A stretch of 64,000 nucleotides of DNA. It comes from a phage. The DNA lies in sequence record PZ027503.1. One strand, 5' to 3'. Both the position numbers and the translations under genes were made by a program. Of this stretch, positions 5,179 to 47,169 are shown in pieces (the stretch's first letter is position 1; the number at the start of each line of letters is the position of its first letter). A model generated the notes under the pieces. That model was not told the origin of the DNA. It worked only from the letters and a program-made list of their open reading frames with translations, and ran no database searches.

Positions 5179-5194
5179 TCTGTTTAAATAGTTA

Positions 5195-5222
5195 TTGACT
5201 TTAGTATTAGTTTTAGTATAAT
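5195..5222 (+). promoter_or_regulatory. sigma70-like promoter
   Basis: TTGACT, 16-bp spacer, TATAAT. Confidence 0.5.
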
Positions 5223-5276
5223 ATAGCACAATACTGGGAGGAGGTGAGTCCTCCCGTTCAAAACGAAGGAGAAAAT

Positions 5277-5687
5277 ATGTCATTAGTAAATACTACAACT
5301 TGGGCTACCGTAAGCATGTCTACTGTAATGTCTACCCCTATCTGGAAACTAGAATCAAATAAACACAATGGCAATATCCCACACGAGAAACAAAATGCTG
5401 TTATTAGAGCGTCGCTTGTAATGCTGGGTATGGCTGAAGATTCACACTATTCTGTTGAGCGTAATGTGAATATCCGAAGCAATAACGATAAGCGGGTAGT
5501 GTTTGCAAATACAACGCTTTTCACTTTCCCTGTTTCACCTAATTGTGGTTTTAAACGAATCTACCAAGAAAATGATATTTTTCATTTTGGTGATGAAGAA
5601 TTTACAGGTTGGGGTGCGTCACATATTAAGATGGATGATTTCGGTAACTCTTATGATCCTGCGAAAGCAGATGATACTAATCAATGA
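5277..5687 (+). CDS. hypothetical protein
   Basis: GAAGGAG RBS before ATG at 5277; 5' UTR hairpin GGGAGG/CCTCCC. Confidence 0.5.
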   Translation: MSLVNTTTWATVSMSTVMSTPIWKLESNKHNGNIPHEKQNAVIRASLVMLGMAEDSHYSVERNVNIRSNNDKRVVFANTTLFTFPVSPNCGFKRIYQENDIFHFGDEEFTGWGASHIKMDDFGNSYDPAKADDTNQ

Positions 5688-5695
5688 GAGGGACA

Positions 5696-5938
5696 ATGAC
5701 TGATAATAAATATGAAGGCTGTGAAATCGAAGTCTATTTTGATGAAACTGTTGGTTGTAATGTAACTGTAATTCTAGACACTTCAAAACGTTTATCTCCT
5801 AAAAGACAAGAAGCAGACCGTCGAGCAAAAGCAAAAGGGTTTGATGACATAACTCATTTTGAAGGTTTTCTATATGCTAATGGACTTTTTAATGAAATGA
5901 AGTTTGGTTATGATGTAGATGTTTTGAATATGCATTAA
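5696..5938 (+). CDS. hypothetical protein
   Basis: ORF with GAGAGGG RBS; start chosen at ATG 5696. Confidence 0.45.
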   Translation: MTDNKYEGCEIEVYFDETVGCNVTVILDTSKRLSPKRQEADRRAKAKGFDDITHFEGFLYANGLFNEMKFGYDVDVLNMH

Positions 5939-5954: not shown

Positions 5955-8195
5955 TTGATTCGTTTTGTAACTAAATCTAACGGTAAGACAGAGGAGTTTA
6001 ATCCAGAAAAACTTCGCAAATGGTCTGAATTTGCAGCAGGTAAACTAAACTGGTCTGAAATTGAATTAGAAGCTGTGAAGCGGTGTTATGACGGTGTGTC
6101 TACACGTGATCTGCATAAAGCAATGATTGCAGCGTGTATTGACAAGAAAACACAAGCTTACAGTGATATGGCAGGAAGACTTCTTCTTGGTATGATTTAC
6201 AAACAGGCTCATGGGGGATACCACAGTATCCCTTCACTGAATACCTTTTATCATGATATGGTAGAACGTGGACATTGGGCTAAAATGGATTATACTGATG
6301 AAGAGATCAAAGAAATAGGTAAGATTGTAAAGCATAATAAAAATCTAACTTATGGTTATTCTGTTTTACGTCAGATGGTAGATAAATATCTTATTCGAGA
6401 TGCAGTAAACGATGTGGTGCATGAGTCTCCACAGTTTCTTTTCATTGGTATCGCAATGAAGGTTATGGAGATCCAACCAAAAGAACGCCGTATAGAAGAT
6501 ATTAAAAAACTTTATACTTATGTTAGCGATCTTAAGATTAATCTGCCATCGCCGTATCTGACAACTCTACGAACTCCAATCAAAGGAAGTGCGTCTTGTT
6601 GTTTATTCCGTGCAGACGATACGGCAGAATCTTTAGCCATTGCTAATTACTTAGCTCATGAGTATACGTTGAATAACGCAGGTATTGGTGTTAATCTTCA
6701 AACTCGTGCCACAGGTCAAGGTGTTAAGAATAATCGTATTATTCATGGTGGTCTTCTTCCGTATCTGAAATGGATGGAAGATAGTGTTGGAGCTTCGAAG
6801 CAAGCAAGCCGTGGAGGTAGTGCTACAGTTACTTTTACCATACTTGAACCAGACTTCGACGATCTGATTCGACTGAAGAATCCAACAACACCTATAGATA
6901 AACGAGTAGACAAACTGGATTATTCTATTGTTGTTAACCGTTCGTTCTTGCGTCGAGCAGCAAAAAACGAAGATTGGATGTTAGTTAGTTGTGATGATGC
7001 TCCTGAACTTTATGAAGCTTTGTATAAAAGTGAAGAAGAGTTTGATGCAGTTTATGACAAAGTAAGCCGTCGCCGCATTAAGAAAAAATTTGTTAAGGCT
7101 CGTGATCTTCTGACAGAGATTATTGTTCAACGTGCAGAAACAGGACGTATTTACATGTTCTTTGCTGACAACGTTAACAACCATACACCTTTCCTGGATA
7201 CGGTGTATCAATCAAACCTGTGTCAAGAGATCTTCTTACCAACTAAAGCTTTCCACAGTATGCCGGATCTCTTTACTGGTGAGAATACAGAAGATCAAGA
7301 ATTGGCTTTATGCTTCTTATCTTCTATTGTTGCTGGTCGTGTCTTACCTGAAGAATATGAGGATGTTGCATACTACACTGTATTGACAATTGACAACGTT
7401 ATTGAAACAATGGATTATCCATTTAAACATAACGAAATAACTGCTAAAGCACGTAGATCTATTGGTGTAGGCATTACAAACTTAGCGCATTACTTGGCAA
7501 GTAATTTTGTAAATTATTCAGATGCTTATGCTAAAAAATTAATGCATGAACTTGCAGAACGTCATTACTTCTGGTTGGCAAAAGCCTCTCTGCGTCTGGC
7601 TAAGGAAAAAGGTAATGCGGAATGGATTGATAAGACCAAATGGCCTCAAGGTTGGCTACCAATTGACACTTATGCTAAAACAGTAGATAGTATCGGTAAT
7701 TTTGATCTTAAAATGGACTGGGAAGGCTTACGTGCTGAAATCATTGAACAAGGTGGTATCCGTAACAGTGTCTTGGCTGCTATCGCACCTAATGAGTCCA
7801 GCAGTTTGGTAAGCAATACTACTAACTCTCTGTATCCTGTTCGTGATACTATTATGTATAAACAAAGTCAGAAAGGTAGTGTATTATTTATTGTTCCAGA
7901 CTACGAAAAACTGAAAATGTTCTACCAGTCCGCCTGGGACACTCCGGCTAAAGACCTTGCAGAAATGTATGGTATCTTTACCAAGTTTACGGACCAAGGA
8001 ATTTCTTGTGATTCTTGGCTAGATTATTCTAAATTGGTAGGTGGACGTTTATCAGTGAAAGCTGAGATGCAGTTTATTCTGAATTTTGCTAGACTGGGTG
8101 GTAAGTCGTTGTATTACCTTAATAGTAGAACAAAATCAGCAGACTCTTTAGCACAAGAAGATTCTGATGGTGGTTGTGAAGCTTGCAAGATGTGA
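5955..8195 (+). CDS. nrdA: ribonucleoside-diphosphate reductase large subunit (class Ia, NrdA)
   Basis: 746 aa; N-terminal ATP-cone (VTKSNGKTEEFNPEKL); length and overall pattern typical of NrdA; TTG start after GGGAGGAG. Confidence 0.9.
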   Translation: MIRFVTKSNGKTEEFNPEKLRKWSEFAAGKLNWSEIELEAVKRCYDGVSTRDLHKAMIAACIDKKTQAYSDMAGRLLLGMIYKQAHGGYHSIPSLNTFYHDMVERGHWAKMDYTDEEIKEIGKIVKHNKNLTYGYSVLRQMVDKYLIRDAVNDVVHESPQFLFIGIAMKVMEIQPKERRIEDIKKLYTYVSDLKINLPSPYLTTLRTPIKGSASCCLFRADDTAESLAIANYLAHEYTLNNAGIGVNLQTRATGQGVKNNRIIHGGLLPYLKWMEDSVGASKQASRGGSATVTFTILEPDFDDLIRLKNPTTPIDKRVDKLDYSIVVNRSFLRRAAKNEDWMLVSCDDAPELYEALYKSEEEFDAVYDKVSRRRIKKKFVKARDLLTEIIVQRAETGRIYMFFADNVNNHTPFLDTVYQSNLCQEIFLPTKAFHSMPDLFTGENTEDQELALCFLSSIVAGRVLPEEYEDVAYYTVLTIDNVIETMDYPFKHNEITAKARRSIGVGITNLAHYLASNFVNYSDAYAKKLMHELAERHYFWLAKASLRLAKEKGNAEWIDKTKWPQGWLPIDTYAKTVDSIGNFDLKMDWEGLRAEIIEQGGIRNSVLAAIAPNESSSLVSNTTNSLYPVRDTIMYKQSQKGSVLFIVPDYEKLKMFYQSAWDTPAKDLAEMYGIFTKFTDQGISCDSWLDYSKLVGGRLSVKAEMQFILNFARLGGKSLYYLNSRTKSADSLAQEDSDGGCEACKM

Positions 8196-14554: not shown

Positions 14555-14989
14555 ATGTTACAAGTTCCTGCTAAGTTTGTTGAAGGCGCTATCCACTCTT
14601 ACCGTCAAACATGTAAGAGGGCAAGAAACTGTTTAGATGGTCTGGTGGCAAAAACCTATACTGTTGAAAAGAAGAAACGTTGGTTTGGCAAAGATGTTTA
14701 CGAAGTTAATATTTTTGGTGAACATAAACTAAACCATGATACTCCTGAAAACATGTTAGAAATATTTCTAAGAGATGACAAAATATCTCCTATGGATTAC
14801 CAACTTTTAAAATTTTATGATTCTTCTTTGGCTATTGATAAGTTTGTTGAAGATATTCTGTCTAGAAAAACAGATAAAAACACTTATCCTCTAGAAGCTG
14901 ATCAAATAGGATTATTAAACGAGATTTCATCCTTTAAAGAGTTGGATAATATTACAAAAGAGGAGATTTTAGATGGCATTAGATTATGA
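14555..14989 (+). CDS. hypothetical protein
   Basis: ORF in track; GGAGA RBS. Confidence 0.5.
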   Translation: MLQVPAKFVEGAIHSYRQTCKRARNCLDGLVAKTYTVEKKKRWFGKDVYEVNIFGEHKLNHDTPENMLEIFLRDDKISPMDYQLLKFYDSSLAIDKFVEDILSRKTDKNTYPLEADQIGLLNEISSFKELDNITKEEILDGIRL

Positions 14990-15482
14990 TCGCCCAACGA
15001 GCGATTATTATCCGACACCGCAAAAAGCAATCAATAGTTTGTTTAGTGTTATAGATTTCAAAAATCTAAAGGAAGAAGGTTGGGTTTTTGCAGAACCTTG
15101 CAGAGGTGAAGCTGAAGCGATTTATCGCCATTTTCCTGAAGGTTCGGAATATTGCGAACTTGAAGAAGGTAAAGATTATTTTAGTCATGAATGGGAAAAT
15201 CGTCCCGACATTATAATCACAAACCCTCCATTTAAGTTAGCAATGGAGTTCTTGGAAAAGAGCTTAAAAGAGGCGGATGTTTGTATTTATCTTCTTCGGT
15301 TGGGCTTCTTGGAGTCAAAGAAACGACGAGAGTTCCATCAAAAGAATCCACCAACAAACCTTATAGTCCTTTCAGAACGGCCTTCGTTTGTTGCAGGTGG
15401 AACAGATAAGACAGCATACGCTTGGTATGTATACGACCCAAAGAATCGTTTGGGCCTCTCTCAACCATTTTATTTTGTTTAA
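14973..15482 (+). CDS. putative N6-adenine DNA methyltransferase (small phage Dam-like)
   Basis: DYYPTP near N-terminus and IIITNPPF motif; 169 aa. Confidence 0.45.
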   Translation: MALDYDRPTSDYYPTPQKAINSLFSVIDFKNLKEEGWVFAEPCRGEAEAIYRHFPEGSEYCELEEGKDYFSHEWENRPDIIITNPPFKLAMEFLEKSLKEADVCIYLLRLGFLESKKRREFHQKNPPTNLIVLSERPSFVAGGTDKTAYAWYVYDPKNRLGLSQPFYFV

Positions 15483-15494
15483 GGAGTGTGAACT

Positions 15495-15731
15495 ATGGGT
15501 AAACTAATTATGACAGTGGCTATTGATTTTGATGAAGTAGATGAAAGCCTCAACCTTTCACTTTCTACTGACGTAGATGGCGAAATGGATAATATTGAAG
15601 CAGCTACTGCTCTTTTCTTCAAAAAAGCCATTGAAGTTTATGCCGAACATGCTGCAAATCAGGCAGTAGATTACGGTGGTATCGTGCGAGCTTTAGTTCA
15701 CTCTACCGAGGGCAATGACTGGGAAGATTAA
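15495..15731 (+). CDS. hypothetical protein
   Basis: ORF in track; acidic. Confidence 0.45.
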   Translation: MGKLIMTVAIDFDEVDESLNLSLSTDVDGEMDNIEAATALFFKKAIEVYAEHAANQAVDYGGIVRALVHSTEGNDWED

Positions 15732-15934
15732 TGGCTTACAATTATTACTGCATTTATGCACATGAAAAGAAAAAAGGTGACACTGGGACTAACGTTTATG
15801 CGGAGTCCGAATCTCATGCAAAAGAGATTGGTGCTATCCTTTTATCACGCTGGACTGGAAATAATTACAGTGCAGAAGATATGTTTGCAGAAGTGGATTC
15901 TAGTATCCAAGAAGACAACATAACAACTACGTGA
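15731..15934 (+). CDS. hypothetical protein
   Basis: ORF in track; ATGG/TAATG-type coupling with upstream gene. Confidence 0.45.
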   Translation: MAYNYYCIYAHEKKKGDTGTNVYAESESHAKEIGAILLSRWTGNNYSAEDMFAEVDSSIQEDNITTT

Positions 15935-15950
15935 TATACTTATACTCCCT

Positions 15951-15978
15951 TTTCGGAGGGAGTATTTTAAGGAGGGAT
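15951..15978 (+). terminator. intrinsic terminator
   Basis: ATACTCCC...GGGAGTAT 8-bp stem followed by TTTT. Confidence 0.5.
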
Positions 15979-15979
15979 T

Positions 15980-16174
15980 ATGCAGAGCGGAGAAGAACTT
16001 TTAGAGAAACAATTCTCAACGCGTCAACAAGCTTTAAGTTATATGGTTTTTCTAAGCAATCTTGATGTGAATGAGATACTTTTACGGCGCGAAGGTAATT
16101 TCTGGAGCGTTAAATATCATGCAACAAGGTCTGTAATCTACCTGGAAGAGGCGGAATTCTCTTTGGTAGAATGA
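15980..16174 (+). CDS. hypothetical protein
   Basis: ORF in track; GGAGGG RBS. Confidence 0.45.
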   Translation: MQSGEELLEKQFSTRQQALSYMVFLSNLDVNEILLRREGNFWSVKYHATRSVIYLEEAEFSLVE

Positions 16175-16188
16175 TCCTAGGAGTAGTT

Positions 16189-16761
16189 ATGCGTTCAACT
16201 TTCACTGGCAAAATAAATGCTGGTTTGATTTTTACAGCAGTAAGCATTCTTAGCAAAAAGTTTAAAGTTGTTAACTTACCTGTGTGTGTCGATTTCGATC
16301 ATGTTTTTGATCCTTCGAACCCCACTCGTTGCATAGTAAGGAGTAATGTTGAAAACCCAACAGAAAATCTTTTTTATGTAACAAAACCATCTCAAAGCAT
16401 ACTTAACCAGGTTGAGGCGAAATTGATACCTAACGGTAAATATTACTCCTTTTTACCTTGTAAGTCGGTTGAAGTAGAGAATAGCAATACTTTCGCTAAT
16501 AACTTGTCTGTATTCGTTTTCTTTGTTTCACAGGAAGACGAAACAGATGAAATGGTAGCAACAGTGAGATCACTTTATGACTCTTTAGGGGTTGTTTATA
16601 GTCAACAAGTGTGCGAAAATAATAAAGCCTGTGTAGATTTCATTATCAACGGTATTTGTGTTTGTAGAGTAGAATCTTTTTGGCTGCACGATACATATGT
16701 GACTGTAGCAGAGGTTATATCTGAACCAAGATTTAGTCATGCGGTTTCGTTAATAATTTGA
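16189..16761 (+). CDS. hypothetical protein
   Basis: ORF in track trimmed to ATG 16189 after AGGAG. Confidence 0.45.
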   Translation: MRSTFTGKINAGLIFTAVSILSKKFKVVNLPVCVDFDHVFDPSNPTRCIVRSNVENPTENLFYVTKPSQSILNQVEAKLIPNGKYYSFLPCKSVEVENSNTFANNLSVFVFFVSQEDETDEMVATVRSLYDSLGVVYSQQVCENNKACVDFIINGICVCRVESFWLHDTYVTVAEVISEPRFSHAVSLII

Positions 16762-16771
16762 GGAGGAAGGA

Positions 16772-17101
16772 ATGGAAATTACTACAGAACAAGCCCTTAT
16801 CGACGAGGGTCGTAAAATCTTAGAAAAGTATTTAGGGGAGATTCATAAAACCCCTGGCTATTTGGGTTGGAGAATTGTTGAAGCTGTAGATTTCCTTCCT
16901 CGTAACAGTAAAAGCGTCGAAATGCGATCTCTTTTCTTATTAGTAAAGGTGGATGGGGATACACCTTTTAAAGATGCCGCAGAACATATTGAAAAAGTTG
17001 AAGAGAAAGCTTATGCAGAGTTTGCCGATCTTGTTTTAGAACAAGAGATTGAAGGGAAGGTGAATATTTTTATTTTCTTAGATTTTGAGGAGGATAAGTG
17101 A
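16772..17101 (+). CDS. hypothetical protein
   Basis: ORF in track; GAGGAGGAAGG RBS. Confidence 0.5.
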   Translation: MEITTEQALIDEGRKILEKYLGEIHKTPGYLGWRIVEAVDFLPRNSKSVEMRSLFLLVKVDGDTPFKDAAEHIEKVEEKAYAEFADLVLEQEIEGKVNIFIFLDFEEDK

Positions 17102-17841
17102 TCATACACAGAGAAATTACTGTTAAAAGCGATCAAGATCTTTTTATAATTGGAGATCTACACGGTTGTTATAATTTGTATGAAAAAGGAAAGGCAAAGT
17201 TAGGTATCAGAGATACAGATGTGGTTGTATCTCTAGGAGATCTTACTGACCGTGGAAAGCAAAACTTTCGTTGTGTTTTAGAATTTACTCGTAAACACAA
17301 TCGCTACGCTATTCGTGGCAATCATGAAGACATGATGATTAAAGGTATGCTAGAAGGAGATCGTAGCTACTACGAGTGTTGGTATCAAAATGGAGGATAT
17401 ACGGTCTTTGAAGAATGTGGTGAAGAAGGAGCTACAGCCTTAGCAATGATGACAGAAGATTTACCTGTTGTTCTCGTTGTTAACTACAGAGGCATGAAAC
17501 TTGCGTTTATTCATGGTGGGTATCCCTCTTCTTTGGAATATCTCCCTGTAACAGATATTCCAGAATACATTTCGAAGATGACAAAAACACAGGAAAACCG
17601 TTTTGCTGAAGCACTTATGTGGGACAGAGATATGGTAGACTGTGCTAAAGAGGGAATGAAACTTCCTGTTGTGATGGGTGTGGATTATGTGTTTCATGGA
17701 CACTCTTATGTAAAAACACCTATTATCAATGCGAATCGTGTTTATATGGATACTGGATCTGTGTTCAATAATAACTTAACATTTGCTTATTTCGATATGG
17801 ACGGTGGTCTTCAATTTTATTCAACTCTTGAGGAGGATTAA
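17098..17841 (+). CDS. Ser/Thr protein phosphatase (calcineurin-like metallophosphoesterase)
   Basis: GDLHG, GDLTDRG, GNHE metallophosphatase motifs in canonical order. Confidence 0.8.
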   Translation: MIIHREITVKSDQDLFIIGDLHGCYNLYEKGKAKLGIRDTDVVVSLGDLTDRGKQNFRCVLEFTRKHNRYAIRGNHEDMMIKGMLEGDRSYYECWYQNGGYTVFEECGEEGATALAMMTEDLPVVLVVNYRGMKLAFIHGGYPSSLEYLPVTDIPEYISKMTKTQENRFAEALMWDRDMVDCAKEGMKLPVVMGVDYVFHGHSYVKTPIINANRVYMDTGSVFNNNLTFAYFDMDGGLQFYSTLEED

Positions 17842-18149
17842 TGTATAAGATTACAATTATTCAAAGTGTAGGTAATATCCGTAAAGAAGTTATCTTAGAA
17901 ACAGAAGATGTTAATCTTGTTCGTGAGATTGTTCTTAAGGAAGATAACCTGCAAGCTGTAGAATCAGATGCACCGAATCTTATGGTGGATCAAGAATATT
18001 CTGAACTTCGTCGTATTTTTGAAGAGATTCAGAAGAAAGAAACACAACCGACCATAAAACCTTTTGGTCCTTATGATCCGAGCAATCCTAGCAGTCCTTG
18101 GATCATGAGAAATACGGAACCGTATACACCTTTTGAAATTACTTGTTGA
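17841..18149 (+). CDS. hypothetical protein
   Basis: ORF in track; ATGA-type overlap. Confidence 0.45.
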   Translation: MYKITIIQSVGNIRKEVILETEDVNLVREIVLKEDNLQAVESDAPNLMVDQEYSELRRIFEEIQKKETQPTIKPFGPYDPSNPSSPWIMRNTEPYTPFEITC

Positions 18150-18156
18150 GGTGATT

Positions 18157-18738
18157 ATGGCAGAACTGTTCTATACGGGAGTTGGAAGTAGAGACATATC
18201 CGAAGAAGAGTGGGCTTTGATGGTAGGCATAGGGAAATGGCTTTCAAACCTTGGGTTTAAATTAAGGTCTGGGAAGGCAGAGGGTAGTGATTCTGCTTTT
18301 GAAACAGGTGTCCAAGAGTCTGAAAATCCTACTAACAAGGAGATTTATGTTCCTTGGGAAAATTTCAAAGGTAATCAGATTCCAGGGGATGTTATTGTTC
18401 TTGCAAAACCAGATACAATGAACTATGCTATCTCTGTGCAATGGATCAAAGATGTTCACCCAGCCTATGAAAAGCTTAAGCAGGGTGCTAGAAAATTGCA
18501 CCAACGTAATGTGCATCAAGTGTTAGGTAGAGATTTGGAGAATCCTGCTCCATCATGTTTCTTGTTGGCTTGTGCTAATACTGATAAACATGGAGATGCA
18601 AAAGGTGGAACAGCTACGGCTTGGAAGATAGCTAAAGCCAATAATGTTCCTTGTTTAAACATTCGTGGGAAAACAAAACAAGAGATTTACGATTTTCTAC
18701 GACCTTTGGTAATGAGGGCAATAACAAGTGATTCCTAA
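18157..18738 (+). CDS. SLOG-superfamily (DprA/LOG-like) Rossmann-fold protein
   Basis: YTGVGSR...RSGKAEGSDSAFETG...KGGTATAWKIA resembles DprA/LOG glycine-rich motifs; start at ATG 18157 after GAGGTGA. Confidence 0.4.
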   Translation: MAELFYTGVGSRDISEEEWALMVGIGKWLSNLGFKLRSGKAEGSDSAFETGVQESENPTNKEIYVPWENFKGNQIPGDVIVLAKPDTMNYAISVQWIKDVHPAYEKLKQGARKLHQRNVHQVLGRDLENPAPSCFLLACANTDKHGDAKGGTATAWKIAKANNVPCLNIRGKTKQEIYDFLRPLVMRAITSDS

Positions 18739-19240
18739 ACGTAAACGTGGTGAACAAAGAACAAACTTGGCAGAAATCTTAGATTACAACATGGTTAATG
18801 ATGTGACAAAAGAAATTCTGCCTGTTGTAGAAGATATTCTTCAAAGAGGGTTACGATTCTGCTCGGATCGGGTGCATTTCATGTGGACACATAAAAGTGA
18901 CTCCGCTTTGAATTTCTATCCTTTGGATTATACTCTGAACAATACAGAGATGAAAGATATCAACAAATACTTAATGGGATATAAAGATATAACCGAAACC
19001 GTTCTTGGAGAATTGGCAGAAATCTTGGCTAACGATATTCTTAGAAATATTAATAAGGCTCTTGACAGAAGCCCAGCAGGAGTAGTAGTATCTTTTGCTG
19101 TGCCAGATATGGTTAAATATGAGTCTACAATACCTAATAAAGCTTATGCCTTTCTTCGGAGAGACGTTCGTGGAAATGTGTTGGAGATGGAGTCAAACTA
19201 CAAGATTGAGGAGGTTTTATGGCAGAGTTCGGATCAGTAA
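18728..19240 (+). CDS. hypothetical protein
   Basis: ORF in track. Confidence 0.45.
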   Translation: MIPKRKRGEQRTNLAEILDYNMVNDVTKEILPVVEDILQRGLRFCSDRVHFMWTHKSDSALNFYPLDYTLNNTEMKDINKYLMGYKDITETVLGELAEILANDILRNINKALDRSPAGVVVSFAVPDMVKYESTIPNKAYAFLRRDVRGNVLEMESNYKIEEVLWQSSDQ

Positions 19241-19509
19241 CAAGTTTTGAAAGTAACTTCGTTACCGCTTGGGAAGCTTGGGATGAAATGGGTGTTGGGG
19301 AACTTTATTTTTACAATGTAACACTACGTCCAGAGTATGCTTACCTGGTACCAGAAGGAACAGTTCAAATTGGCATGTATCTGTCTTCTCAAGATGGTGT
19401 TGTTCAATTTGAGTTTTATTCAAACACAACGGACAACGAATTTACATATCGTGCATTTCATGTCAACATGTCTTTAGGAGAGGAGAAATTTTATGACGAC
19501 CAAGTTTAA
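19219..19509 (+). CDS. hypothetical protein
   Basis: ORF in track. Confidence 0.45.
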   Translation: MAEFGSVTSFESNFVTAWEAWDEMGVGELYFYNVTLRPEYAYLVPEGTVQIGMYLSSQDGVVQFEFYSNTTDNEFTYRAFHVNMSLGEEKFYDDQV

Positions 19510-19690
19510 AACAGTAGAAGAAGCCGTAAAAGCAGCTTATGAGGCTTTAGCGGAAGCAGAGCAGTTAGCAGATGAGACTGGTAAAGGTTTCCGTTTCTCC
19601 CCTGAATATGGGATGGGTGGCTATTATGATCCAGAAGATGAAAATGAGAATACTGGAACAAATTGGCATCCATCTTCTTTAAGTTGTTAA
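19493..19690 (+). CDS. small acidic protein ending in NWHPSSLSC
   Basis: ORF in track; GGAGAGGAG RBS; C-terminal W-x-SS-x-SC shared with next two small genes. Confidence 0.5.
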   Translation: MTTKFKTVEEAVKAAYEALAEAEQLADETGKGFRFSPEYGMGGYYDPEDENENTGTNWHPSSLSC

Positions 19691-19701
19691 TAGGAGGTAA
19701 A

Positions 19702-19971
19702 GTGGGAATCGAAGATATCAAAGGTTATAAACCGCATACCGATGACAAAATTGGTAAAGTGAATGCTATTAAAGATGCTGAAGTTCGATTAGGATTAATC
19801 TTTGATGCTCTAATGTCTGAATTGTGGGCTGAACTGGATGATTGTGAAGATTTGGAAGAGTCTACCAATATATCCACCCGCCTTGACCAAATTTCAATAG
19901 CAAAGACTAAGTTGAAAGAAGCTTCTATGTGGGCCTGTCGTTCCGTTTTCCAACCAGAGGAGAAATACTAA
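19702..19971 (+). CDS. hypothetical protein
   Basis: ORF in track trimmed to GTG 19702 after TAGGAGG. Confidence 0.4.
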   Translation: MGIEDIKGYKPHTDDKIGKVNAIKDAEVRLGLIFDALMSELWAELDDCEDLEESTNISTRLDQISIAKTKLKEASMWACRSVFQPEEKY

Positions 19972-20189
19972 TGAGTGATCGTAATGTTGAAGAATTAACT
20001 GAAAAAGCCCAAGCTATTATGGCTTTAGTGGACGAACTTACAAAAGAAGCTGAAGATGCTGGTTTTGGTCTTAGTTTAGAAAATGACGCAATCTGTTTTG
20101 AAGATTGGCAATCCTCTTCTTGTTATGGTGAAGGTGATGATGGTTTCGTCGTTAATTCTCAAGGCGTTTGGCACAGTAGTAGCTGTTAA
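19971..20189 (+). CDS. small acidic protein with internal WQSSSC and C-terminal VWHSSSC
   Basis: ATG 19971 after GAGGAGAAA; paralogous N-terminal helix with 19493 gene. Confidence 0.5.
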   Translation: MSDRNVEELTEKAQAIMALVDELTKEAEDAGFGLSLENDAICFEDWQSSSCYGEGDDGFVVNSQGVWHSSSC

Positions 20190-20198
20190 GGAGAGATT

Positions 20199-20471
20199 GT
20201 GGAGTCTGAAGGCGAACTGCTGATAAAAAAGAAAGTTAAAGAGATGGAACAAGCACAAAGAAAGTTTCGTAAGGAGATTGAAGAACTTTGTGAACAGTTT
20301 CAGGAACAAGCTTGGATAGGTGACTACGGTAACGGAGAAACTTATTACCCTACAGGAACGCCAGCCGCAGATCACTATATTGATTTCATTTGTGAAGATT
20401 ATGGTGTAGAGTTGGATGAAAATGGTTTAACCACAAGAGGTGTTTGGATCTCTTCTTCCTCAATGTGTTAG
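20199..20471 (+). CDS. small acidic protein ending in VWISSSSMC
   Basis: GTG start after AAGGAGAG; same C-terminal motif class. Confidence 0.5.
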   Translation: MESEGELLIKKKVKEMEQAQRKFRKEIEELCEQFQEQAWIGDYGNGETYYPTGTPAADHYIDFICEDYGVELDENGLTTRGVWISSSSMC

Positions 20472-20480
20472 TAAATAATA

Positions 20481-20502
20481 ACCCGCTTCGGCGGGTTTTT
20501 TA
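20481..20502 (+). terminator. intrinsic terminator
   Basis: ACCCGC-ttcg-GCGGGT hairpin followed by TTTTTT. Confidence 0.6.
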
Positions 20503-20531
20503 TTGACAGGAATCTGGAAGCTTGATAAACT
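20503..20531 (+). promoter_or_regulatory. sigma70-like promoter
   Basis: TTGACA, 17-bp spacer, TAAACT. Confidence 0.45.
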
Positions 20532-20561
20532 TAACCTATCAACCAATAGAGGAGAAATATT

Positions 20562-21503
20562 ATGGTGTTAATTGGTAGCCGTGCATTACAAATTCATGCT
20601 ATGGACATGGGAAAAGACTTGTATCGCCCTTGTGTAGATTTAGATTACCTGTGTACAGAACAAGAGTGGGAAGAATTATCAAAAATGTTCTCTCAAGATG
20701 AGTTTGTTGAACTTGTAGAACGTAAAGGAAACAAAGGCCATGTCAAAATGATAGCTGGTGCACATTTGGAATACGATATTGCTTCTCAAGGAGATAGCAC
20801 AGAAGCTTTGATTAGTTATTGTGAAGATTCTGATGATGTTCGTCGAACTTACGCTGGACATGTTGTTGCTCCTTTAGATGTGCTCTACCTTCTTAAAATG
20901 AGTCATCGTTTTAAAAAAGATAGTCCTCACTTCTTTAAAACTATGAAAGATATTCATTTCATGCGGTCACTGGGCGCAAAGATCCCAGAAAATCTTAAGA
21001 GTATTTATGAGTTGCGTGAGAAAGAAACATACACTTACTCTCATCCGAACTTAAACGTAAAAAGTAAAGACTTTTTTAAAGGTGATGAGGTTCCGTATGT
21101 TTATGATCATGATTCTATCCATGAAGCAATCGCGGTAATGGATGCTCCGGCATATAAATCTTATATGAAAGATGGAAGTGAAGTTATGACCAGCAAAGAA
21201 AAGTTTTTTGCTCAACCAAAACATGTGCGCCTGTTAGGTGTTTATGAAGAAGCGTGTGTTTTGGCTTTGGAACGTTCACAAATTCCTTTCGGTGGAGAGA
21301 TCGGAGGTCCAACCCCTAAGCAAAGTTTTATAATGGCTTTATCTAAAGTCTGCACATCCATCACTAGTGGTTGGTTTAGGGAATATGCTTGGGAAAACTT
21401 TTATGTTGTTATTAAACTATATGAAAACATGGGCGAAAACGACTATGTTGAACGTTTTAAAGCTAATCAACATGTAGTAAAGCCTTTTGAAGGAGGTTAT
21501 TAA
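20562..21503 (+). CDS. hypothetical protein (possible nucleotidyltransferase-like fold, weak)
   Basis: 313 aa; N-terminal IGSRA...VDLDYL loosely resembles GS...DxD of Pol-beta-type NTases but spacing atypical. Confidence 0.5.
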   Translation: MVLIGSRALQIHAMDMGKDLYRPCVDLDYLCTEQEWEELSKMFSQDEFVELVERKGNKGHVKMIAGAHLEYDIASQGDSTEALISYCEDSDDVRRTYAGHVVAPLDVLYLLKMSHRFKKDSPHFFKTMKDIHFMRSLGAKIPENLKSIYELREKETYTYSHPNLNVKSKDFFKGDEVPYVYDHDSIHEAIAVMDAPAYKSYMKDGSEVMTSKEKFFAQPKHVRLLGVYEEACVLALERSQIPFGGEIGGPTPKQSFIMALSKVCTSITSGWFREYAWENFYVVIKLYENMGENDYVERFKANQHVVKPFEGGY

Positions 21504-21504
21504 T

Positions 21505-21900
21505 ATGTGTGGATATCTTTCAGAAAGTTATTTCAAAGTGACGCATGAGGATTTAGAAAAAGCACGATTGAAACTGACAGCTATTATTGAATACTCTAAT
21601 ACTGTTGATCACAGATTAAAGACTACTAAAGTATCTGTTCCTTGTTGGTTAGGTTTACGGCATAAAATAATGTCTCAACATGACCATGTTGTTCGAGAGA
21701 TGCATGGTTGGTGTTGGTTTCACGATGTGGCTCTGCATTTTGGTTATATTACAGAAGAAGAGCATAGATTCTGTGAACTAACATATCGTATTCCAACCCT
21801 TCACGATTTAGATTTGTGGAAGAAAGCAAACGAGATTTTTCTTACAGAAAGTGATTGGCGTAAAGTTATGGCTTGTCTTGAATGGAGGGGTAATGAGTAA
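21505..21900 (+). CDS. hypothetical protein
   Basis: ORF trimmed to ATG 21505 after GAAGGAGG. Confidence 0.5.
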   Translation: MCGYLSESYFKVTHEDLEKARLKLTAIIEYSNTVDHRLKTTKVSVPCWLGLRHKIMSQHDHVVREMHGWCWFHDVALHFGYITEEEHRFCELTYRIPTLHDLDLWKKANEIFLTESDWRKVMACLEWRGNE

Positions 21901-22576
21901 AACAGTTTTGTCTATGTTTGACGGATCTGGGATCATGGTGTTACGTTATGCCGAAGCAGGTCACAAGTGTTTTTGTGTAAACGCTGATGAAGGGGATCAC
22001 GGTAAATACGAGGTTAGGATGGAGCACCCAAACATAACCTATGTGAATGCCTGGATAGATTCTACATTCAACCCTGAAGATCATGGGATACCTAAACCCG
22101 ATATTATTTTTGGATTTCCACCTTGCACTATGTTAGCAGGTAGTGGTAGCAAACACGAACGCAGCACAGAGGAATTGGATGAAGCTTTAGCTAATATTCG
22201 TGTAGTGGAAGCTTTGGGTAACAAATATAATGTTCCTTGGATGATTGAGAACCCAGTAGGTAAACTTTCAACCTTATGGCGTAAACCCGATTTTTACTTT
22301 GATCCTTATGAGTATGGTGGGTATTTGTTTGAAGAGGAAGGAAGCTTTCATCCTAAAATGCCTACCCGTGATGGGTATACAAAGAAAACTTGTATTTGGC
22401 ACGGCAATGGTTTTGTTCAACCAGTTAAGAAACCAGTAGATCATATAGGCTGCTTCTGGGGTTGGAAAAGCTTAGGTGGAGCTAGTGCAAAAACAAAACA
22501 ACTTAGATCACTAACCGCACGTGGTTTTGCTCGTGCAGTGTTTTTGTCTAACAATCTTCTAGATAAGGAGAAATAA
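21893..22576 (+). CDS. C5-cytosine methyltransferase-like catalytic-core protein lacking a target-recognition domain
   Basis: LSMFDGSG (motif I-like), FGFPPC (PC motif), MIENP (ENV-like); only 227 aa; ATG 21893 after GGAGGGG. Confidence 0.35.
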   Translation: MSKTVLSMFDGSGIMVLRYAEAGHKCFCVNADEGDHGKYEVRMEHPNITYVNAWIDSTFNPEDHGIPKPDIIFGFPPCTMLAGSGSKHERSTEELDEALANIRVVEALGNKYNVPWMIENPVGKLSTLWRKPDFYFDPYEYGGYLFEEEGSFHPKMPTRDGYTKKTCIWHGNGFVQPVKKPVDHIGCFWGWKSLGGASAKTKQLRSLTARGFARAVFLSNNLLDKEK

Positions 22577-23244: not shown

Positions 23245-23276
23245 AAAGCCTCCTGTTTCAGGGGGCTTTTCTTTTA
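23245..23276 (+). terminator. intrinsic terminator
   Basis: AAAGCCTCC...GGGGGCTTT 9-bp stem (one G-U) followed by TCTTTTAT. Confidence 0.5.
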
Positions 23277-23287: not shown

Positions 23288-23773
23288 ATGTTTCAAGTAA
23301 ATGTCAATGTGCATAATAGTTACTCTGATTGTGAAACGTGTGGCTATAATTCATCTAATGTTATTCGTATTAGTGGCGATTTAGGAGAAGCTTCTTTTGG
23401 AGAAGAAGCAAGTTGCTTTAGTGGTATGGATGCAGAATGGAATGATATTGCACATTGGTTAGTGAGCAAACTAAAAGAAAAAGAGAAACCATTTCCTACT
23501 CTGCTTGATCGTTCTCTTGTGGAAGATGCAGGTAAAGCATACGCAGACTATGCGTATGCAGACGGGAAATATTTGGAAGATGATAAGGCTAACCATTTGC
23601 TTTATGTTTACTATGAAGCTGAATCTGCCTACGATAATTATTACAGCATGTCTAACATCCTACGTCTGTTTGCAGAGTTTGATATTTATTTCGAAGTAGA
23701 ATTTTCAGAAGATGATACTTACGAGTACAATTCTTATGATCCATTTGAGGAGGAAGAATGCCAAGACGAGTGA
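23288..23773 (+). CDS. hypothetical acidic protein
   Basis: ORF in track; GGAGGGA RBS. Confidence 0.5.
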   Translation: MFQVNVNVHNSYSDCETCGYNSSNVIRISGDLGEASFGEEASCFSGMDAEWNDIAHWLVSKLKEKEKPFPTLLDRSLVEDAGKAYADYAYADGKYLEDDKANHLLYVYYEAESAYDNYYSMSNILRLFAEFDIYFEVEFSEDDTYEYNSYDPFEEEECQDE

Positions 23774-24573
23774 TTTTTGTAAGCGGTGCAGGTTTAAGTG
23801 CAGACAGTGGGATTCGAACATTTAGAACAGACACAGATAGTGGTCGTGCTTTATGGGAAGAATATGATTTAGAAGAGGTCTGCGATATTGGAGCTTTCCA
23901 AGCAGGTTATCGTGTTAGAACATCTCCAGATCTTCCAGTGGTCGGTGGTGTAGACGAGAACGGTATGGATTTGTATGCCAAAACACACGAATTTTATAAC
24001 AAAAGACGTGTTGAGCTTAAAGATGTACAACCTAATGCTGCACATATTCAAATAGCAAAGTGGTTTAAGGAATATCCTAACCAAATAGTAAACTTGACAA
24101 CAAACGTTGATGATCTACTAGAGCGAGCAGGTGTAGACAGAGATTCTGTTATTCACGTACACGGCTATCTTCCTGAAGTAGTTTACCGTATGCATCCTGG
24201 AGATTACAAAACACTGGTAGATATTGGTTACAATAGTATAAACATAGATGATTATAACTGGGTGAAGCCTAATGTTGTATTTTTTGGTGAGGCTGCACCT
24301 TTGTATGCAGATATGGCTCACTTGTTCGATACTTTGACCATGCAAGATTTGGTTGTAGTAGTAGGATGTTCAAACCAAGTTATCAATTTTAATTGGGAAT
24401 TATTTCCTGCACTTAGTATGGGTACAAAAATGGTTGTAGTTAACCCTGGAGTTAATTACGAAGAAACACTTCTCTATGAAGATCGTGGAGTTTTTGTTTA
24501 CCGAGAAAAAGCTGCAACAGCCTTCAGCAATGAAGGTTTCATTAAAATGGTCGAAGACCACTTAAACAAATAA
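23758..24573 (+). CDS. Sir2-family (sirtuin/CobB-like) protein lacking the zinc-ribbon cysteines
   Basis: GAGLSADSGIRTFR, QPNAAHIQIAKW, TTNVDDLLERAG, VIHVHG, VVFFGE parallel CobB; the Cys4 segment is absent. Confidence 0.8.
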   Translation: MPRRVIFVSGAGLSADSGIRTFRTDTDSGRALWEEYDLEEVCDIGAFQAGYRVRTSPDLPVVGGVDENGMDLYAKTHEFYNKRRVELKDVQPNAAHIQIAKWFKEYPNQIVNLTTNVDDLLERAGVDRDSVIHVHGYLPEVVYRMHPGDYKTLVDIGYNSINIDDYNWVKPNVVFFGEAAPLYADMAHLFDTLTMQDLVVVVGCSNQVINFNWELFPALSMGTKMVVVNPGVNYEETLLYEDRGVFVYREKAATAFSNEGFIKMVEDHLNK

Positions 24574-24582
24574 ACCACTCAA

Positions 24583-24605
24583 GGGGCTTCGGCCCCTTTC
24601 TTATT
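24583..24605 (+). terminator. intrinsic terminator
   Basis: GGGGC-ttcg-GCCCC followed by TTTCTTATT. Confidence 0.55.
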
Positions 24606-24616
24606 AGGAGAATAAA

Positions 24617-24889
24617 ATGACTGAAGAAATCCGTGATTACTACCTTGCACATTACGTTTACTACTTTGCCAATGCTACACAAAAAGGGGAAGGTAATCTT
24701 TACTTGGCAACAGGACATGGAACAGGCGTTAGGAAATCAAATATTGATAATGCCTTGGCTCAAGTGGCTGCGGGGCTAGAAGATAAACTTCAAACACCTG
24801 TAGTTGTAGTGATGCAAAATATAAGTTACTTAGCAAGTTGTACTGAAACCGAATTTAACGCGTCTGAGACGCAATCTAACGAAGAATAA
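24617..24889 (+). CDS. hypothetical protein
   Basis: ORF in track; AGGAGAATAAA RBS; last gene of plus-strand block. Confidence 0.5.
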   Translation: MTEEIRDYYLAHYVYYFANATQKGEGNLYLATGHGTGVRKSNIDNALAQVAAGLEDKLQTPVVVVMQNISYLASCTETEFNASETQSNEE

Positions 24890-24924
24890 AACAAAGGCAC
24901 CCACTTGGGTGCCTTTTCTATTTT
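24885..24924. terminator. bidirectional terminator at convergent strand switch
   Basis: AGGCACCC-actt-GGGTGCCT hairpin flanked by A-rich 5' side and TTTCTATTTT 3' side. Confidence 0.55.
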
Positions 24925-46206: not shown

Positions 46207-46497
46207 TCATTGTTGGCGGTTTACGTAAGCTTTACCGTTTACGGTCATCTGTATGGCTTCAAGGTCTGGATCTTCCTTAAGGTCGCGTGCAAGCTCACCG
46301 CAGCGGATACCCTCGAATCCGTAGTATTCTGTTTCCCCGTCCTTAAAAGTTTTAGCGGCAAGGCATAGGCGATAATTAACGCCGATCCGGTTTACCGCGT
46401 TGATATCGGTTAACGCGATGGATTCAGGCAAATCATTAGCCATTACAGGCGCGTTAATACCAACAACCAGGGCAACTACTGCGATCATCTTTTTCAT
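46207..46497 (-). CDS. secreted protein with N-terminal signal peptide
   Basis: MKKMIAVVALVVGINAPVMA signal-like N-terminus; hairpin GGGGCGGTAACGCCCC in leader. Confidence 0.5.
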   Translation of the reverse strand: MKKMIAVVALVVGINAPVMANDLPESIALTDINAVNRIGVNYRLCLAAKTFKDGETEYYGFEGIRCGELARDLKEDPDLEAIQMTVNGKAYVNRQQ

Positions 46498-46552
46498 GCT
46501 TTCTAGCCTCTTCCTATTGCGTTTAATGGGGCGTTACCGCCCCGCTTATGGT

Positions 46553-46789: not shown

Positions 46790-46833
46790 AATCTTTTCCT
46801 TTCTGATGTGGGGCGTTGCCGCCCCTTTGTTGA

Positions 46834-47133: not shown

Positions 47134-47151
47134 TTTACTTTCCTCATTATC

Positions 47152-47169
47152 GGCGGCACCATTGCCGCC
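47152..47169 (-). promoter_or_regulatory. 5' leader stem-loop of promoter/stem-loop cassette
   Basis: GGCGGCA-atgg-TGCCGCC on the sense (minus) strand, no U-run, preceded by TTGATC/TATATT promoter-like elements. Confidence 0.5.

Follow-up and report, generated by a model that had tools for sequence, protein, structure and literature searches.

Sirtuins and related NAD-dependent systems

Among solved structures, the one nearest to the phage protein considered here is E. coli CobB, a class III sirtuin of the CobB/SIRT5 type. Human SIRT5 is a desuccinylase and demalonylase that uses a Tyr/Arg pair for acidic acyl groups, together with a small residue, Ala86. E. coli CobB (PDB 1S5P, 6RXJ-6RXS) has the equivalent pair, Y92/R95, a small residue at A76 and four zinc-ribbon cysteines (C118, C137, C139 and C140 in the numbering of the short isoform). 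A Rossmann-type NAD-binding domain of the Sir2 superfamily is also found in the defence-associated SIR2 NADases (ThsA, DSR1/DSR2, SIR2-HerA, SIR2-APAZ/pAgo), which, like the phage protein, lack the canonical Cys4 ribbon. As for protein ADP-ribosylation, the precedents are Alt, ModA and ModB of T4, all unrelated to sirtuins, and, among sirtuins, SirTM, SIRT4 and SIRT6 are capable of it.

Phage sirtuins have already entered the literature. In 2016, Skliros et al. reported the loss of the zinc ligands in the Vibrio phage homologues and listed homologues in T5 and SPC35; they also claimed, from modelling and transcript levels only, that Acs is reactivated by deacetylation (PMC5107563). In 2022, Iyer, Burroughs, Anantharaman and Aravind proposed a role in RNA repair for the phage clade, with Escherichia phage V5, Proteus phage Mydo, Escherichia phage SP15 and Serratia phage BF as examples (PMC9503650, section 3.7.3). 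A literature search found no biochemical or genetic characterisation of any clade member.

The clade itself, PHROG 2162, is large, is confined to virulent phages and descends from class III CobB/SIRT5-type sirtuins. Sir2 homologues occur in 984 phage records; among the carriers are some jumbo phages and the T5-like, rV5-like, phAPEC8-like and KVP40-like groups. A scan of 185,579 species genomes for the clade motif found no occurrence. Identity to the Sir2 described below is 52% for the T5-like homologues, 47% for rV5 and 37% for Serratia BF, and all of these share a ribbon free of cysteines and the motif T[TA]NV. The homologue of Vibrio phage nt-1 (35.6% identity over 99% of the length, E=5e-38) places the Vibrio schizoT4-like phages (KVP40, phiSt2, phiGrn1, nt-1) beside it: nt-1 belongs to the same clade, and these phages likewise have a Cys-free ribbon and a replaced Gln (TANVS). 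They differ in lacking a 22-aa insertion and in their gene contexts, and nt-1 has Ser for the motif Asp.

The sir2 gene and its surroundings

The DNA analysed, 64,000 nucleotides of sequence record PZ027503.1 (hereafter the window), comes from a Phapecoctavirus, i.e., a phAPEC8-like E. coli myovirus. The open reading frame described earlier is present exactly as claimed: it lies on the plus strand at 23758..24573, stop codon included, and encodes a Sir2/CobB-like sirtuin of 271 aa, as judged from the ORF list, the Pfam, PHROG and CobB matches and the AF2 model. Most of the near-identical GenBank records listed already carry this gene under the name Sir2 or NAD-dependent deacetylase, and this window adds nothing beyond that annotation and the published in-silico work.

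A Shine-Dalgarno sequence, GAGGAGG, can be read at 23747..23753 (+), 4 nt upstream of the sir2 ATG. Further upstream begins a plus-strand ORF of 161 aa (23288..23773), very acidic (pI 4.05) and assigned to phrog_9509, which overlaps the start of sir2 by 16 nt and shares with it a two-gene unit bounded by a common terminator. Is this ORF a conserved partner of Sir2? That idea was ruled out, for the ORF is confined to three closely related Phapecoctavirus-like lineages. Downstream, a terminator scan placed an intrinsic terminator (AAGGGGC-TTCG-GCCCCTT plus a T-rich tail) at 24581..24608 (+), with its hairpin at 24581-24598; it closes the unit and is also annotated as a terminator in NC_048196. 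The preliminary description had put sir2 at the end of the plus-strand block next to a terminator. The terminator is indeed there, but sir2 is not the last gene, as a 90-aa plus-strand ORF (24617-24889) follows before the strand switch.

In this phage, then, sir2 is a stand-alone gene whose only unit-mate is a lineage-specific acidic ORF. Its expression would fall within the early/middle gene block. No tRNA genes were found in the window.

Membership of the sirtuin family

The protein is almost certainly a genuine sirtuin, and here the assignment made in the preliminary description is well borne out. A profile search against Pfam gave SIR2 (PF02146) as the sole match, its score (80.5 bits, E=1.9e-22) exceeding the gathering cut-off of 24; PHROG 2162, "Sir2", matched over residues 2-271 (E=2.8e-104); and the best sequence match was E. 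coli CobB (1s5p; E=7.6e-19, ~28% identity). The AF2 model is confident (pLDDT 90.8, pTM 0.88). Foldseek again placed CobB first (E about 2e-17; TM-score, normalised to the target, 0.80-0.83). All 50 of the structural matches listed are sirtuins, headed by deacylases, of which CobB, Sir2Af1 and SIRT5 match best. SIRT5 is matched as a fold with an E of about 1e-14, although identity to it is only about 19-20%.

These matches, together with those to NCBIfam deacylase subfamily models and the confident model, argue for a protein deacylase. The same NCBIfam search also holds a point against it: the CobB equivalog cut-offs are far from reached (NF040867, 85.9 vs 320 bits; NF001753, 106.3 vs 243 bits), and because of this the phage Sir2 is not regarded as a CobB orthologue. 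Capture of a CobB orthologue from the host was accordingly rejected as an origin, given also the low identity and the lack of a close relative in the species genomes scanned.

A parallel with the NADase effectors of anti-phage systems had been drawn at first sight of the sequence; it found no support. The PADLOC defence models gave only a weak partial match (E=0.017), Pfam returned the canonical SIR2 family and nothing else, and the nearest folds are those of deacylases. Unlike the defence proteins, the phage Sir2 is a single domain with no sensor (SLOG, HerA, CTD or APAZ) and no partner gene, and its neighbours are unrelated. A defence-type Sir2 NADase is thus ruled out by the lack of a defence match in PADLOC or Pfam and by the sirtuin folds among the 50 listed matches.

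NAD site, catalytic residues and acyl pocket

Residue conservation was counted over 135 representatives, and a separate alignment of 120 phage sequences was also used. Of the E. coli CobB sequence used in the alignments, the blocks at query residues 4-46 and 77-209 agree with the HMMER alignments.

All of the motifs quoted in the preliminary description, including GAGLSADSGIRTFR, TTNVDDLLERAG, VIHVHG and VVFFGE, were located in the protein. The NAD-binding motif GAGLSADSGIRTFR (residues 10-23; 23785..23826, +) aligns to GAGISAESGIRTFR of CobB, and its G10, G12, F22 and R23 are kept in 125-134 of the 135 representatives. With S14, G203, S205 and N229, which are also conserved in the family, these residues indicate that the Rossmann NAD-binding motifs are present. 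QPNAAH follows at residues 91-96, TTNVDDLLERAG at 114-125, VIHVHG at 131-136 and VVFFGE at 173-178. In short, the GAGxS, FR, QPNxAH, NxD, HG and FGE motifs are common to CobB and the phage protein.

The catalytic residues have their equivalents in the alignment, as had been expected. His135, in the HG motif (codon at 24160..24162, +), aligns to the catalytic His of CobB, and it and G136 are invariant (135/135). The motif TTNVD (residues 114-118; 24097..24111, +) corresponds to the canonical TQN[IV]D with Gln replaced by Thr: T114 and N116 are found in all 135 representatives and D118 in 130, while at position 115 Q occurs in 80 of them and T in 42, the canonical Gln being absent here (Thr115).

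The residues that would face the acyl group are conserved as well. The class III Tyr/Arg pair lies in FYNKR (Y80...R83; 23995..24006, +) and equals Y92/R95 of CobB by alignment; Tyr occupies the first position in 129 and Arg the second in 104 of the 135 representatives, and the 120-sequence phage alignment shows no variation at Y80, R83 or R84. The acyl pocket as a whole (C42, Y80, R83, V117, V173 and F176) is equivalent to CobB A76, Y92, R95, I131, V187 and F190. Since C42 is a small residue at the position of CobB A76 and SIRT5 Ala86, the protein has, with Y80/R83, the combination by which class III sirtuins are recognised, and in this it resembles both CobB and SIRT5. Four of the CobB positions (A76, Y92, I131 and V187) are those engineered for acyl specificity and named in PDB 6rxm/6rxs, and their equivalents are conserved. 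Both the invariant H135, G136, N116 and T114 and the conserved pocket with its Tyr/Arg pair speak for a deacylase.

Other parts of the active site have been remodelled. The stretch GCSNQVINFNWELFP (residues 203-217; 24364..24408, +) is the counterpart of the cofactor/substrate loop G-T-S-x-x-V-x-P. In the phage alignment, its G203, S205, V208 and F211 are invariant, N212, W213, F216 and P217 are conserved at 90% or more, and a conserved VINFNWELFP takes the place of the canonical V-x-P substrate loop. CobB thus has TQNID, GTS and VYP where the phage protein has TTNVD, GCS and VIN; SIRT5, too, has the canonical TQNID. In addition, the small helical domain of the phage protein carries a lineage-specific insertion of ~22 aa at residues 49-70 (23902..23967, +), which the alignments show to be absent from CobB and from the homologues of rV5, the T5-like phages, Vibrio nt-1 and Serratia BF. 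Given the changed NAD-site motifs and the replaced V-x-P loop, the reaction or the substrate may differ, and the substitutions (Gln to Thr in TQNxD, Thr to Cys/Ser/Ala in GTS, VINFNWELFP for V-x-P) weigh against a deacylase.

One such different reaction would be the NAD+-dependent mono-ADP-ribosylation of a host or phage protein, so as to reprogram it. The NAD-cleaving machinery is intact as far as the conserved residues tell, the changes Q115T and GTS to GCS could tip the balance from deacylation towards transfer, and sirtuin ADP-ribosyltransferases exist: SirTM (class M) has QG for HG, retains its zinc domain and invariably comes with a linked macrodomain gene (Rack et al. 2015, PMC4518038). 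The phage protein shares with SirTM the sirtuin fold and the use of NAD, but it has the invariant HG and no zinc ligands, and no macrodomain was found by Pfam in the scanned neighbouring ORFs here or in the rV5 and T5-like phages. The retained HG and the absent macrodomain neighbour rule out SirTM identity, and with these hallmarks missing, and the invariant His and class III acyl pocket pointing to deacylation chemistry, mono-ADP-ribosyltransferase activity is quite improbable.

A zinc ribbon without cysteines

Cysteine occurs only twice in the protein, as C42 and C204, and neither falls in the segment between HG and FGE (residues 136-176), in agreement with what had been reported for this segment in the preliminary description. 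That description had gone further, stating that the zinc-ribbon module itself is lacking and that structure prediction should confirm its loss, and this part does not stand. The segment at residues 136-172 (24163..24273, +) is a Cys-free remnant, as seen from its homology to Zn-type relatives and from the AF2 model and DSSP. It can be matched column by column to the CxxC...IGY...CxxC of those relatives, its length is 39 aa vs 41-43 aa in the Cys4 relatives, and the central D[IV]GY is kept as DIGY. Instead of a gap, the model has a confident beta-ribbon (pLDDT about 95), with DSSP strands at 136-144, 152-155 and 168-173. According to the model, then, this is a ligand-less zinc ribbon in which the fold is retained and only the Cys ligands are gone. 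CobB and SIRT5 differ from the phage protein in this respect, as both have the four cysteines.

The loss of the cysteines co-varies with the change of Gln to Thr in TQNxD and with the loss of Thr from GTS, which is Thr in 100% of the Zn-type relatives and Cys, Ser or Ala in the Cys-less group (GCS here). With its catalytic residues in place, the phage Sir2 is predicted to be a catalytically competent, metal-free sirtuin.

A possible lysine deacylase

What would such an enzyme do? The best guess, to which a probability of about 0.45 is given, is a CobB-like, NAD-dependent lysine deacylase acting on acyl-lysine in proteins. The phage Sir2 would bind NAD+ and expel nicotinamide; an O-ADP-ribosyl adduct would then form with the carbonyl oxygen of the acyl-lysine; and His135 would promote attack by a ribose hydroxyl to give free lysine and O-acyl-ADP-ribose. 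Such a three-step mechanism would therefore make it an NAD-dependent lysine deacylase. Acetyl and acidic acyl groups (succinyl, malonyl) would probably both be handled, as they are by CobB, and class III sirtuins tested in vitro have shown broad deacylase activity (PMC10652111), which also favours this reading. The enzyme may relieve host or phage enzymes of inhibitory acylation, candidate targets being the AMP-forming enzymes and ligases that depend on a Lys. Modification of host or phage proteins, one of the roles first suggested for this gene, is plausible.

The protein is acidic (pI 4.83, net charge -15; the family ranges from pI 4.7 to 6.1), a feature that it shares with CobB and that would be unusual for an enzyme that has to grip RNA. 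A further argument comes from the gene itself, which stands alone here with no RNA-repair gene within 8 kb. On the other side, the host already has a CobB of its own, and, according to one report, CobB restricts T4 and lambda instead of aiding them (PMC4271551).

Gene neighbourhoods and RNA repair

The main rival of the lysine deacylase is the RNA-repair sirtuin of Iyer et al., in which the protein would remove RNA 2'-phosphates in an NAD+-dependent manner, as Tpt1/KptA does. In their scheme, a damaged tRNA or RNA end bears a 2'-phosphate, generated when a 2',3'-cyclic phosphate is opened by cREC, 2H or HAD enzymes; this phosphate attacks C1'' of NAD+ and nicotinamide leaves. A ribose hydroxyl activated by the His then frees the phosphate as ADP-ribose 1'',2''-cyclic phosphate, so that the RNA end becomes ligatable, and the by-product is cleared by MazG, Nudix or 2H enzymes. 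The two steps run parallel to those of a sirtuin reaction, and the Tyr/Arg pair could offer a site for an anionic group. The likeness to Tpt1/KptA (PF01885) is one of proposed chemistry only, via an ADP-ribosylated intermediate (PMC9503650): the fold is unrelated, no sequence similarity exists, and the best fold matches of the phage protein are all deacylases.

This proposal draws on the company that some of the homologues keep, a pattern that a general protein deacylase does not predict. In rV5-like phages, the genes run Rnl1, cREC (PF20274, E=3e-15), Sir2 and MazG-like, Sir2 being separated from its neighbours by 9 and 14 nt, and an AAA_33 kinase and a metallophosphoesterase are found next to the operon. 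In T5-like phages, HAD_SAK_2 (PF18143, E=2e-20), an RNA-end phosphatase, lies 124-280 nt downstream of Sir2 at 29 of the 55 loci. The genes of Serratia phage BF follow one another as Nampt, an annotated "RNA ligase" of 148 aa, Sir2, Nudix and PhoH; Iyer et al. assign a 2H-family enzyme to this neighbourhood, the annotated ligase (PMC9503650). Of the 18 Sir2 lineages overall, 9 carry a gene for RNA end healing no more than about 3 kb away, and the linkage is confirmed in the rV5-like and T5-like phages, although it amounts to two or three independent syntenies only.

How does the present locus compare? Here the Sir2 does not sit beside Rnl1, cREC, kinase, phosphoesterase, MazG or HAD_SAK_2: neither in the window nor at the other Phapecoctavirus-like loci was an RNA-repair gene found within 8 kb of it, and tblastn of the window with the rV5 Rnl1, cREC, kinase, phosphoesterase and MazG and the T5 HAD_SAK_2 found no homologue. 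The genus does encode orthologues of the whole rV5 cassette, which counts for RNA repair; in NC_048196, the cassette is outside the window, about 27-33 kb from Sir2, and this separation, which holds in all Phapecoctavirus-like lineages, counts against it. Similarly, Rnl1 occurs in 14 Salmonella records vs 289 for Sir2, and T5-like phages are few, if any, among the Rnl1 matches; the large T5-like group therefore appears to be without a detectable Rnl1, which is easier to reconcile with a lysine deacylase. Two features of the protein would also be awkward for a polymeric RNA substrate, namely the intact hydrophobic acyl-lysine tunnel (V117, V173, F176) and the strongly negative charge. All considered, the RNA-repair sirtuin is a somewhat unlikely alternative.

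A broader form of the same idea, which goes back to the 2022 prediction (PMC9503650), is that the Cys-less clade with Gln replaced by Thr contains no protein deacylase at all and is instead the first group of nucleic-acid sirtuins, whether NAD+-dependent analogues of Tpt1 or other processors of RNA ends. In that case, the Sir2 would cooperate with cREC, HAD_SAK_2 or 2H enzymes and would remove 2'-phosphates from cleaved tRNA ends, as a counter-defence against anticodon nucleases. This is rated as unlikely.

The neighbourhoods have also a bearing on whether the protein may consume NAD+ or produce an NAD-derived signal, be it to manipulate the NAD pool of the host, to interfere with NAD-based defence signalling or to exclude competing phages. 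The early annotation of the KVP40 protein was that of an NAD-hydrolysing enzyme (quoted in PMC5107563), the Sir2 of Serratia BF is near the genes for Nampt, an enzyme of NAD salvage, and Nudix, and a SLOG/DprA-like gene lies within 8 kb of Sir2 in 7 lineages. This proposal is nonetheless highly improbable. The Pfam, PADLOC and Foldseek searches found no similarity to the defence NADase Sir2 families; the protein has neither a sensor or regulatory domain nor a partner gene; and the conserved acyl-pocket residues would be left without a role. Moreover, an unregulated NADase would drain a cofactor that the phage needs, and no NAD salvage gene is annotated in the window except a dubious 71-aa "PRPP synthetase" ORF in one record.

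Implications

Whatever its reaction, this clade of phage Sir2 proteins offers a natural sirtuin whose ribbon is predicted to fold without zinc, and it can help to understand the role of the zinc module. Roughly a thousand sequenced virulent phages have such a sirtuin, and many of the carriers are candidates for phage therapy. If the protein is a lysine deacylase, then phages actively rewrite the lysine-acylation state of their hosts. If it acts on RNA ends, sirtuin chemistry would extend to nucleic acids, and the repair of tRNA by phages would gain an NAD-dependent step.

A sirtuin with a cysteine-free ribbon

The gene at 23758-24573 on the plus strand is present in the ORF list as a coding sequence of 271 aa, with the ribosome-binding site GAGGAGG 4 nt 5' of its ATG, and the sirtuin motifs quoted for it in the preliminary description are all found in its translation. 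A profile search bears out the family named there: the product, Sir2, scores 80.5 bits with Pfam SIR2 (PF02146), where 24 is the threshold (E = 1.9e-22), and over its whole length matches PHROG 2162, "Sir2 (NAD-dependent deacetylase)" (E = 2.8e-104). Judged from such profiles, the family match is far beyond chance. NCBIfam deacylase subfamily models match as well (E down to 1e-30), every one below its equivalog cut-off, and the closest solved relative is E. coli CobB (1s5p, E = 7.6e-19). The AlphaFold2 model is confident (mean pLDDT 90.8, pTM 0.88), and CobB is its top hit in a Foldseek search of the PDB (E about 2e-17, TM 0.80-0.83 normalized to the target), followed by Sir2Af1 and SIRT5.

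In an alignment of 135 representatives clustered at 50% identity, the catalytic H135 and N116 are invariant, as are G136 and T114, while D118 is found in 130 of the 135. By alignment, the residues of the CobB acyl pocket are matched by conserved ones in the phage protein: A76 corresponds to C42, Y92 to Y80, R95 to R83, I131 to V117, V187 to V173, and F190 to F176. CobB has been engineered at four of these positions (A76, Y92, I131, V187; PDB entries 6rxm and 6rxs). The class III Tyr/Arg pair is invariant across the phage alignment. In CobB and SIRT5, this pair recognizes acidic acyl groups.

What has become of the zinc ribbon? The segment between H135-G136 and the FGE motif was correctly described as devoid of cysteines; the protein has only two, C42 and C204, both outside it, and no conserved cysteine column occurs in this segment among 119 close homologues (at least 54% identity). 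To speak of a protein "lacking the zinc-ribbon module" was nevertheless an overstatement. Among the 135 representatives, the canonical CxxC...CxxC is found in the more distant relatives, and the phage-like sequences align with them column by column, minus the cysteines; their segment is 39 aa long versus 41-43 aa in the relatives with cysteines, and the central D[IV]GY turn is retained. Structure prediction, proposed as a check on the missing module, instead places strands at 136-144, 152-155 and 168-173 within residues 136-173, at pLDDT of about 95. Because alignment, length, turn and strands are all kept, the ribbon is, in the model, retained as a fold, with the metal ligands alone lost. Taken by alignment, the NAD-binding and nicotinamide-cleaving machinery is predicted to be intact, with the general-base His and the class III acyl pocket conserved and the ribbon metal-free.

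Other motifs are remodeled too. The change of Gln to Thr in TQNxD accompanies the loss of cysteines (Gln with at least three Cys, 69 sequences; Thr with no Cys, 27; mixed, 9 and 9). The Thr of the G-T-S motif, present in 100% of the zinc-type group, is Cys, Ser or Ala in the Cys-less group, and a conserved VINFNWELFP stands in place of the canonical V-x-P loop. In rV5, T5-like phages, Vibrio phage nt-1 and Serratia phage BF alike, Sir2 has a ribbon without cysteines together with a T[TA]NV motif. The nt-1 protein (4998-5759 of its locus, L059) reads TANVS, with Ser replacing the otherwise nearly invariant motif Asp, and binding of the nicotinamide moiety may differ in its subgroup.

Local context and distribution

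Sir2 shares a unit bounded by intrinsic terminators (23245-23269 and 24581-24598) with a 161-aa ORF (23288-23773, plus strand), whose last 16 nt overlap the start of Sir2. This ORF (phrog_9509, no Pfam hit) is found in Phapecoctavirus-like lineages only, where it always abuts Sir2; its product is very acidic (pI 4.05) and rich in D, E and Y, a composition resembling that of DNA-mimic or anti-restriction proteins. Sir2 had been thought to end the plus-strand block next to a terminator; the terminator does adjoin it, but a further plus-strand ORF follows at 24617-24889. A 10-bp perfect stem at 24893-24916 has the form of a terminator on either strand; placed where the plus block meets the minus block, it looks to be a bidirectional terminator separating two convergent units.

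On the 5' side lie a 217-aa protein of unknown function and a Dcm-like DNA methyltransferase (21851-22576, plus strand; phrog_757, E = 1.8e-84) with an FGFPPC motif and no Pfam match at E ≤ 0.01, which appears to be a divergent C5-methyltransferase-like protein. Next comes a 313-aa protein (20562-21503, plus strand; phrog_2141) with DUF7277 (E = 8.5e-14) and DUF7275 (E = 7.5e-76), conserved 5' of Sir2 in several Phapecoctavirus-like lineages. Two adjoining plus-strand ORFs of 86 and 90 aa (19929-20189 and 20199-20471) each match the C-terminal part of phrog_899 and end in alike tails, ...VW(H/I)SSS(M)C, which suggests tandem duplication of a small gene. About 5 kb 5' of Sir2 is a 193-aa "DprA-like" protein (18133-18738, plus strand; 6394-6975 in locus L001; phrog_768, no Pfam hit), whose gene is no more than 8 kb from Sir2 in seven lineages, two of them T5-like (loci L014 and L025). 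The SLOG superfamily, whose members bind nucleotides and ADP-ribose, includes Rossmann domains of the DprA type. The 64-kb window holds no tRNA gene.

The Sir2 gene is 99.6-100% identical to genes of Phapecoctavirus genomes (Stephanstirmvirinae), the phAPEC8-like E. coli myoviruses of about 150 kb; among the 20 records listed, most are annotated as Sir2, NAD-dependent deacetylase or deacylase, and several as hypothetical. In a protein-level search, 984 phage records proved to hold a homologue (Escherichia 376, Salmonella 289, Klebsiella 131, Vibrio 50), and the carriers include T5-like, rV5-like, Phapecoctavirus, Justusliebigvirus and KVP40-like Vibrio phages, together with Klebsiella myoviruses of about 142-143 kb. 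Because a motif scan with narrow patterns gave no relative in 185,579 bacterial and archaeal species (one genome each), the clade looks confined to virulent phages. Three records of "Campylobacter phages" (B15, A141 and C3, host given as C. jejuni; MG065650.1, MG065672.1, MG065656.1) hold a Sir2 protein 98% identical to that of E. coli Phapecoctavirus, or an rV5-like Sir2 or Phapecoctavirus-like Rnl1, and their host assignment or sample purity looks doubtful.

Neighborhoods and the substrate

All ORFs were clustered at 55 Sir2 loci (52 from IMG/VR, rV5, a T5-like phage and the window), representing 18 Sir2 lineages at 75% identity. No constant companion gene runs through all 18, and three syntenies emerge. 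The rV5-like order is Rnl1, cREC (PF20274), Sir2 and MazG-like, with gaps of 9 and 14 nt, and an AAA_33 polynucleotide-kinase-like gene and a metallophosphoesterase alongside. In the T5-like order, a HAD_SAK_2 "Swiss-army-knife RNA repair" phosphatase (PF18143) lies 124-280 nt 3' of Sir2, near NrdD and PhoH. Phapecoctavirus-like loci, the window included, hold no RNA-repair gene within 8 kb of Sir2. Serratia phage BF has Nampt, an annotated "RNA ligase" of 148 aa, Sir2, Nudix and PhoH; a 2H enzyme was placed in this neighborhood by Iyer et al. (PMC9503650).

The whole rV5 cassette has Phapecoctavirus orthologues (Rnl1 48% identity, cREC 53%, kinase 43%, phosphoesterase 36%, MazG 31%), clustered about 27-33 kb from Sir2, just beyond the window. 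In the Phapecoctavirus genome NC_048196.1 this end-healing and sealing cassette of MazG-like, PseT-like kinase, Rnl1, metallophosphoesterase and cREC genes occupies 46461-52199 (14962-20700 of its part L006), and 10 tRNA genes cluster about 4 kb beyond it. Some product names in the reference records look doubtful: a 190-aa "histidyl tRNA synthetase" without a Pfam hit (NC_048196.1, 26588-27160), and a 71-aa "phosphoribosylpyrophosphate synthetase" and a 65-aa "DNA ligase" (NC_052656.1, 47544-47759 and 70440-70637).

Such neighborhoods led Iyer et al. (2022), who set apart a group of phage sirtuins as "a distinct clade", naming phages V5, Mydo, SP15 and Serratia BF, to propose a KptA/Tpt1-like removal of RNA 2'-phosphates (PMC9503650). 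This NAD-dependent reaction is the main rival to deacylation and, in our estimate, the less probable of the two. The repeated linkage to three cyclic-phosphate or RNA-end enzymes (cREC, HAD_SAK_2, 2H), which a general deacylase does not predict, speaks for it, as do the remodeled motifs and loops that surround the sites for NAD and substrate. Sir2 would nonetheless most plausibly be a CobB-like lysine deacylase, at a probability of roughly 0.45, because the hydrophobic lysine tunnel and Tyr/Arg pair are retained, because the nearest relatives in sequence and fold are all deacylases, and because the protein is acidic (pI 4.83, net charge -15; family pI range 4.7-6.1, similar to CobB). It also stands apart from RNA ligase here, and apparently in T5-like phages: Rnl1 occurs in 14 Salmonella records versus 289 for Sir2, and the T5-like group, the largest set of carriers, appears to have no Rnl1 homologue. 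A substrate oxygen nucleophile would form an O-ADP-ribosyl intermediate, and His135 would drive the second step. CobB keeps the catalytic lysine of Acs free of acylation; in the rV5 operon, a deacylase Sir2 might likewise keep that of AMP-forming ligases unacylated.

Protein ADP-ribosyltransferase activity is improbable, and a role as NADase or signal-maker slightly more so. The parallel once drawn with NADases of anti-phage defense did not hold up: PADLOC models give one partial match (E = 0.017), Pfam the canonical SIR2 only, and a defense NADase was rejected. SirTM, with QG replacing HG and an adjacent macrodomain (PMC4518038), was rejected as well; Sir2 keeps HG, and Pfam finds no macrodomain in the neighboring ORFs scanned.

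The interpretation in the preliminary description holds in part. Databases and published work already cover the gene, its family and the absent zinc ligands, and the finding is thus already known. Skliros et al. (2016) described Sir2/CobB of Vibrio phages phiSt2, phiGrn1 and KVP40 without the zinc ligand, for which they proposed salt bridges as a substitute, pointed to homologues in T5 and SPC35, and suggested Acs deacetylation as the role (PMC5107563). Host CobB, for its part, restricts T4 and lambda (Koyuncu et al. 2014, PMC4271551). The literature search found no experimental characterization of any member of the phage clade. About a thousand phages carry this sirtuin; what it truly acts on is a real question, but not one newly raised by the window.
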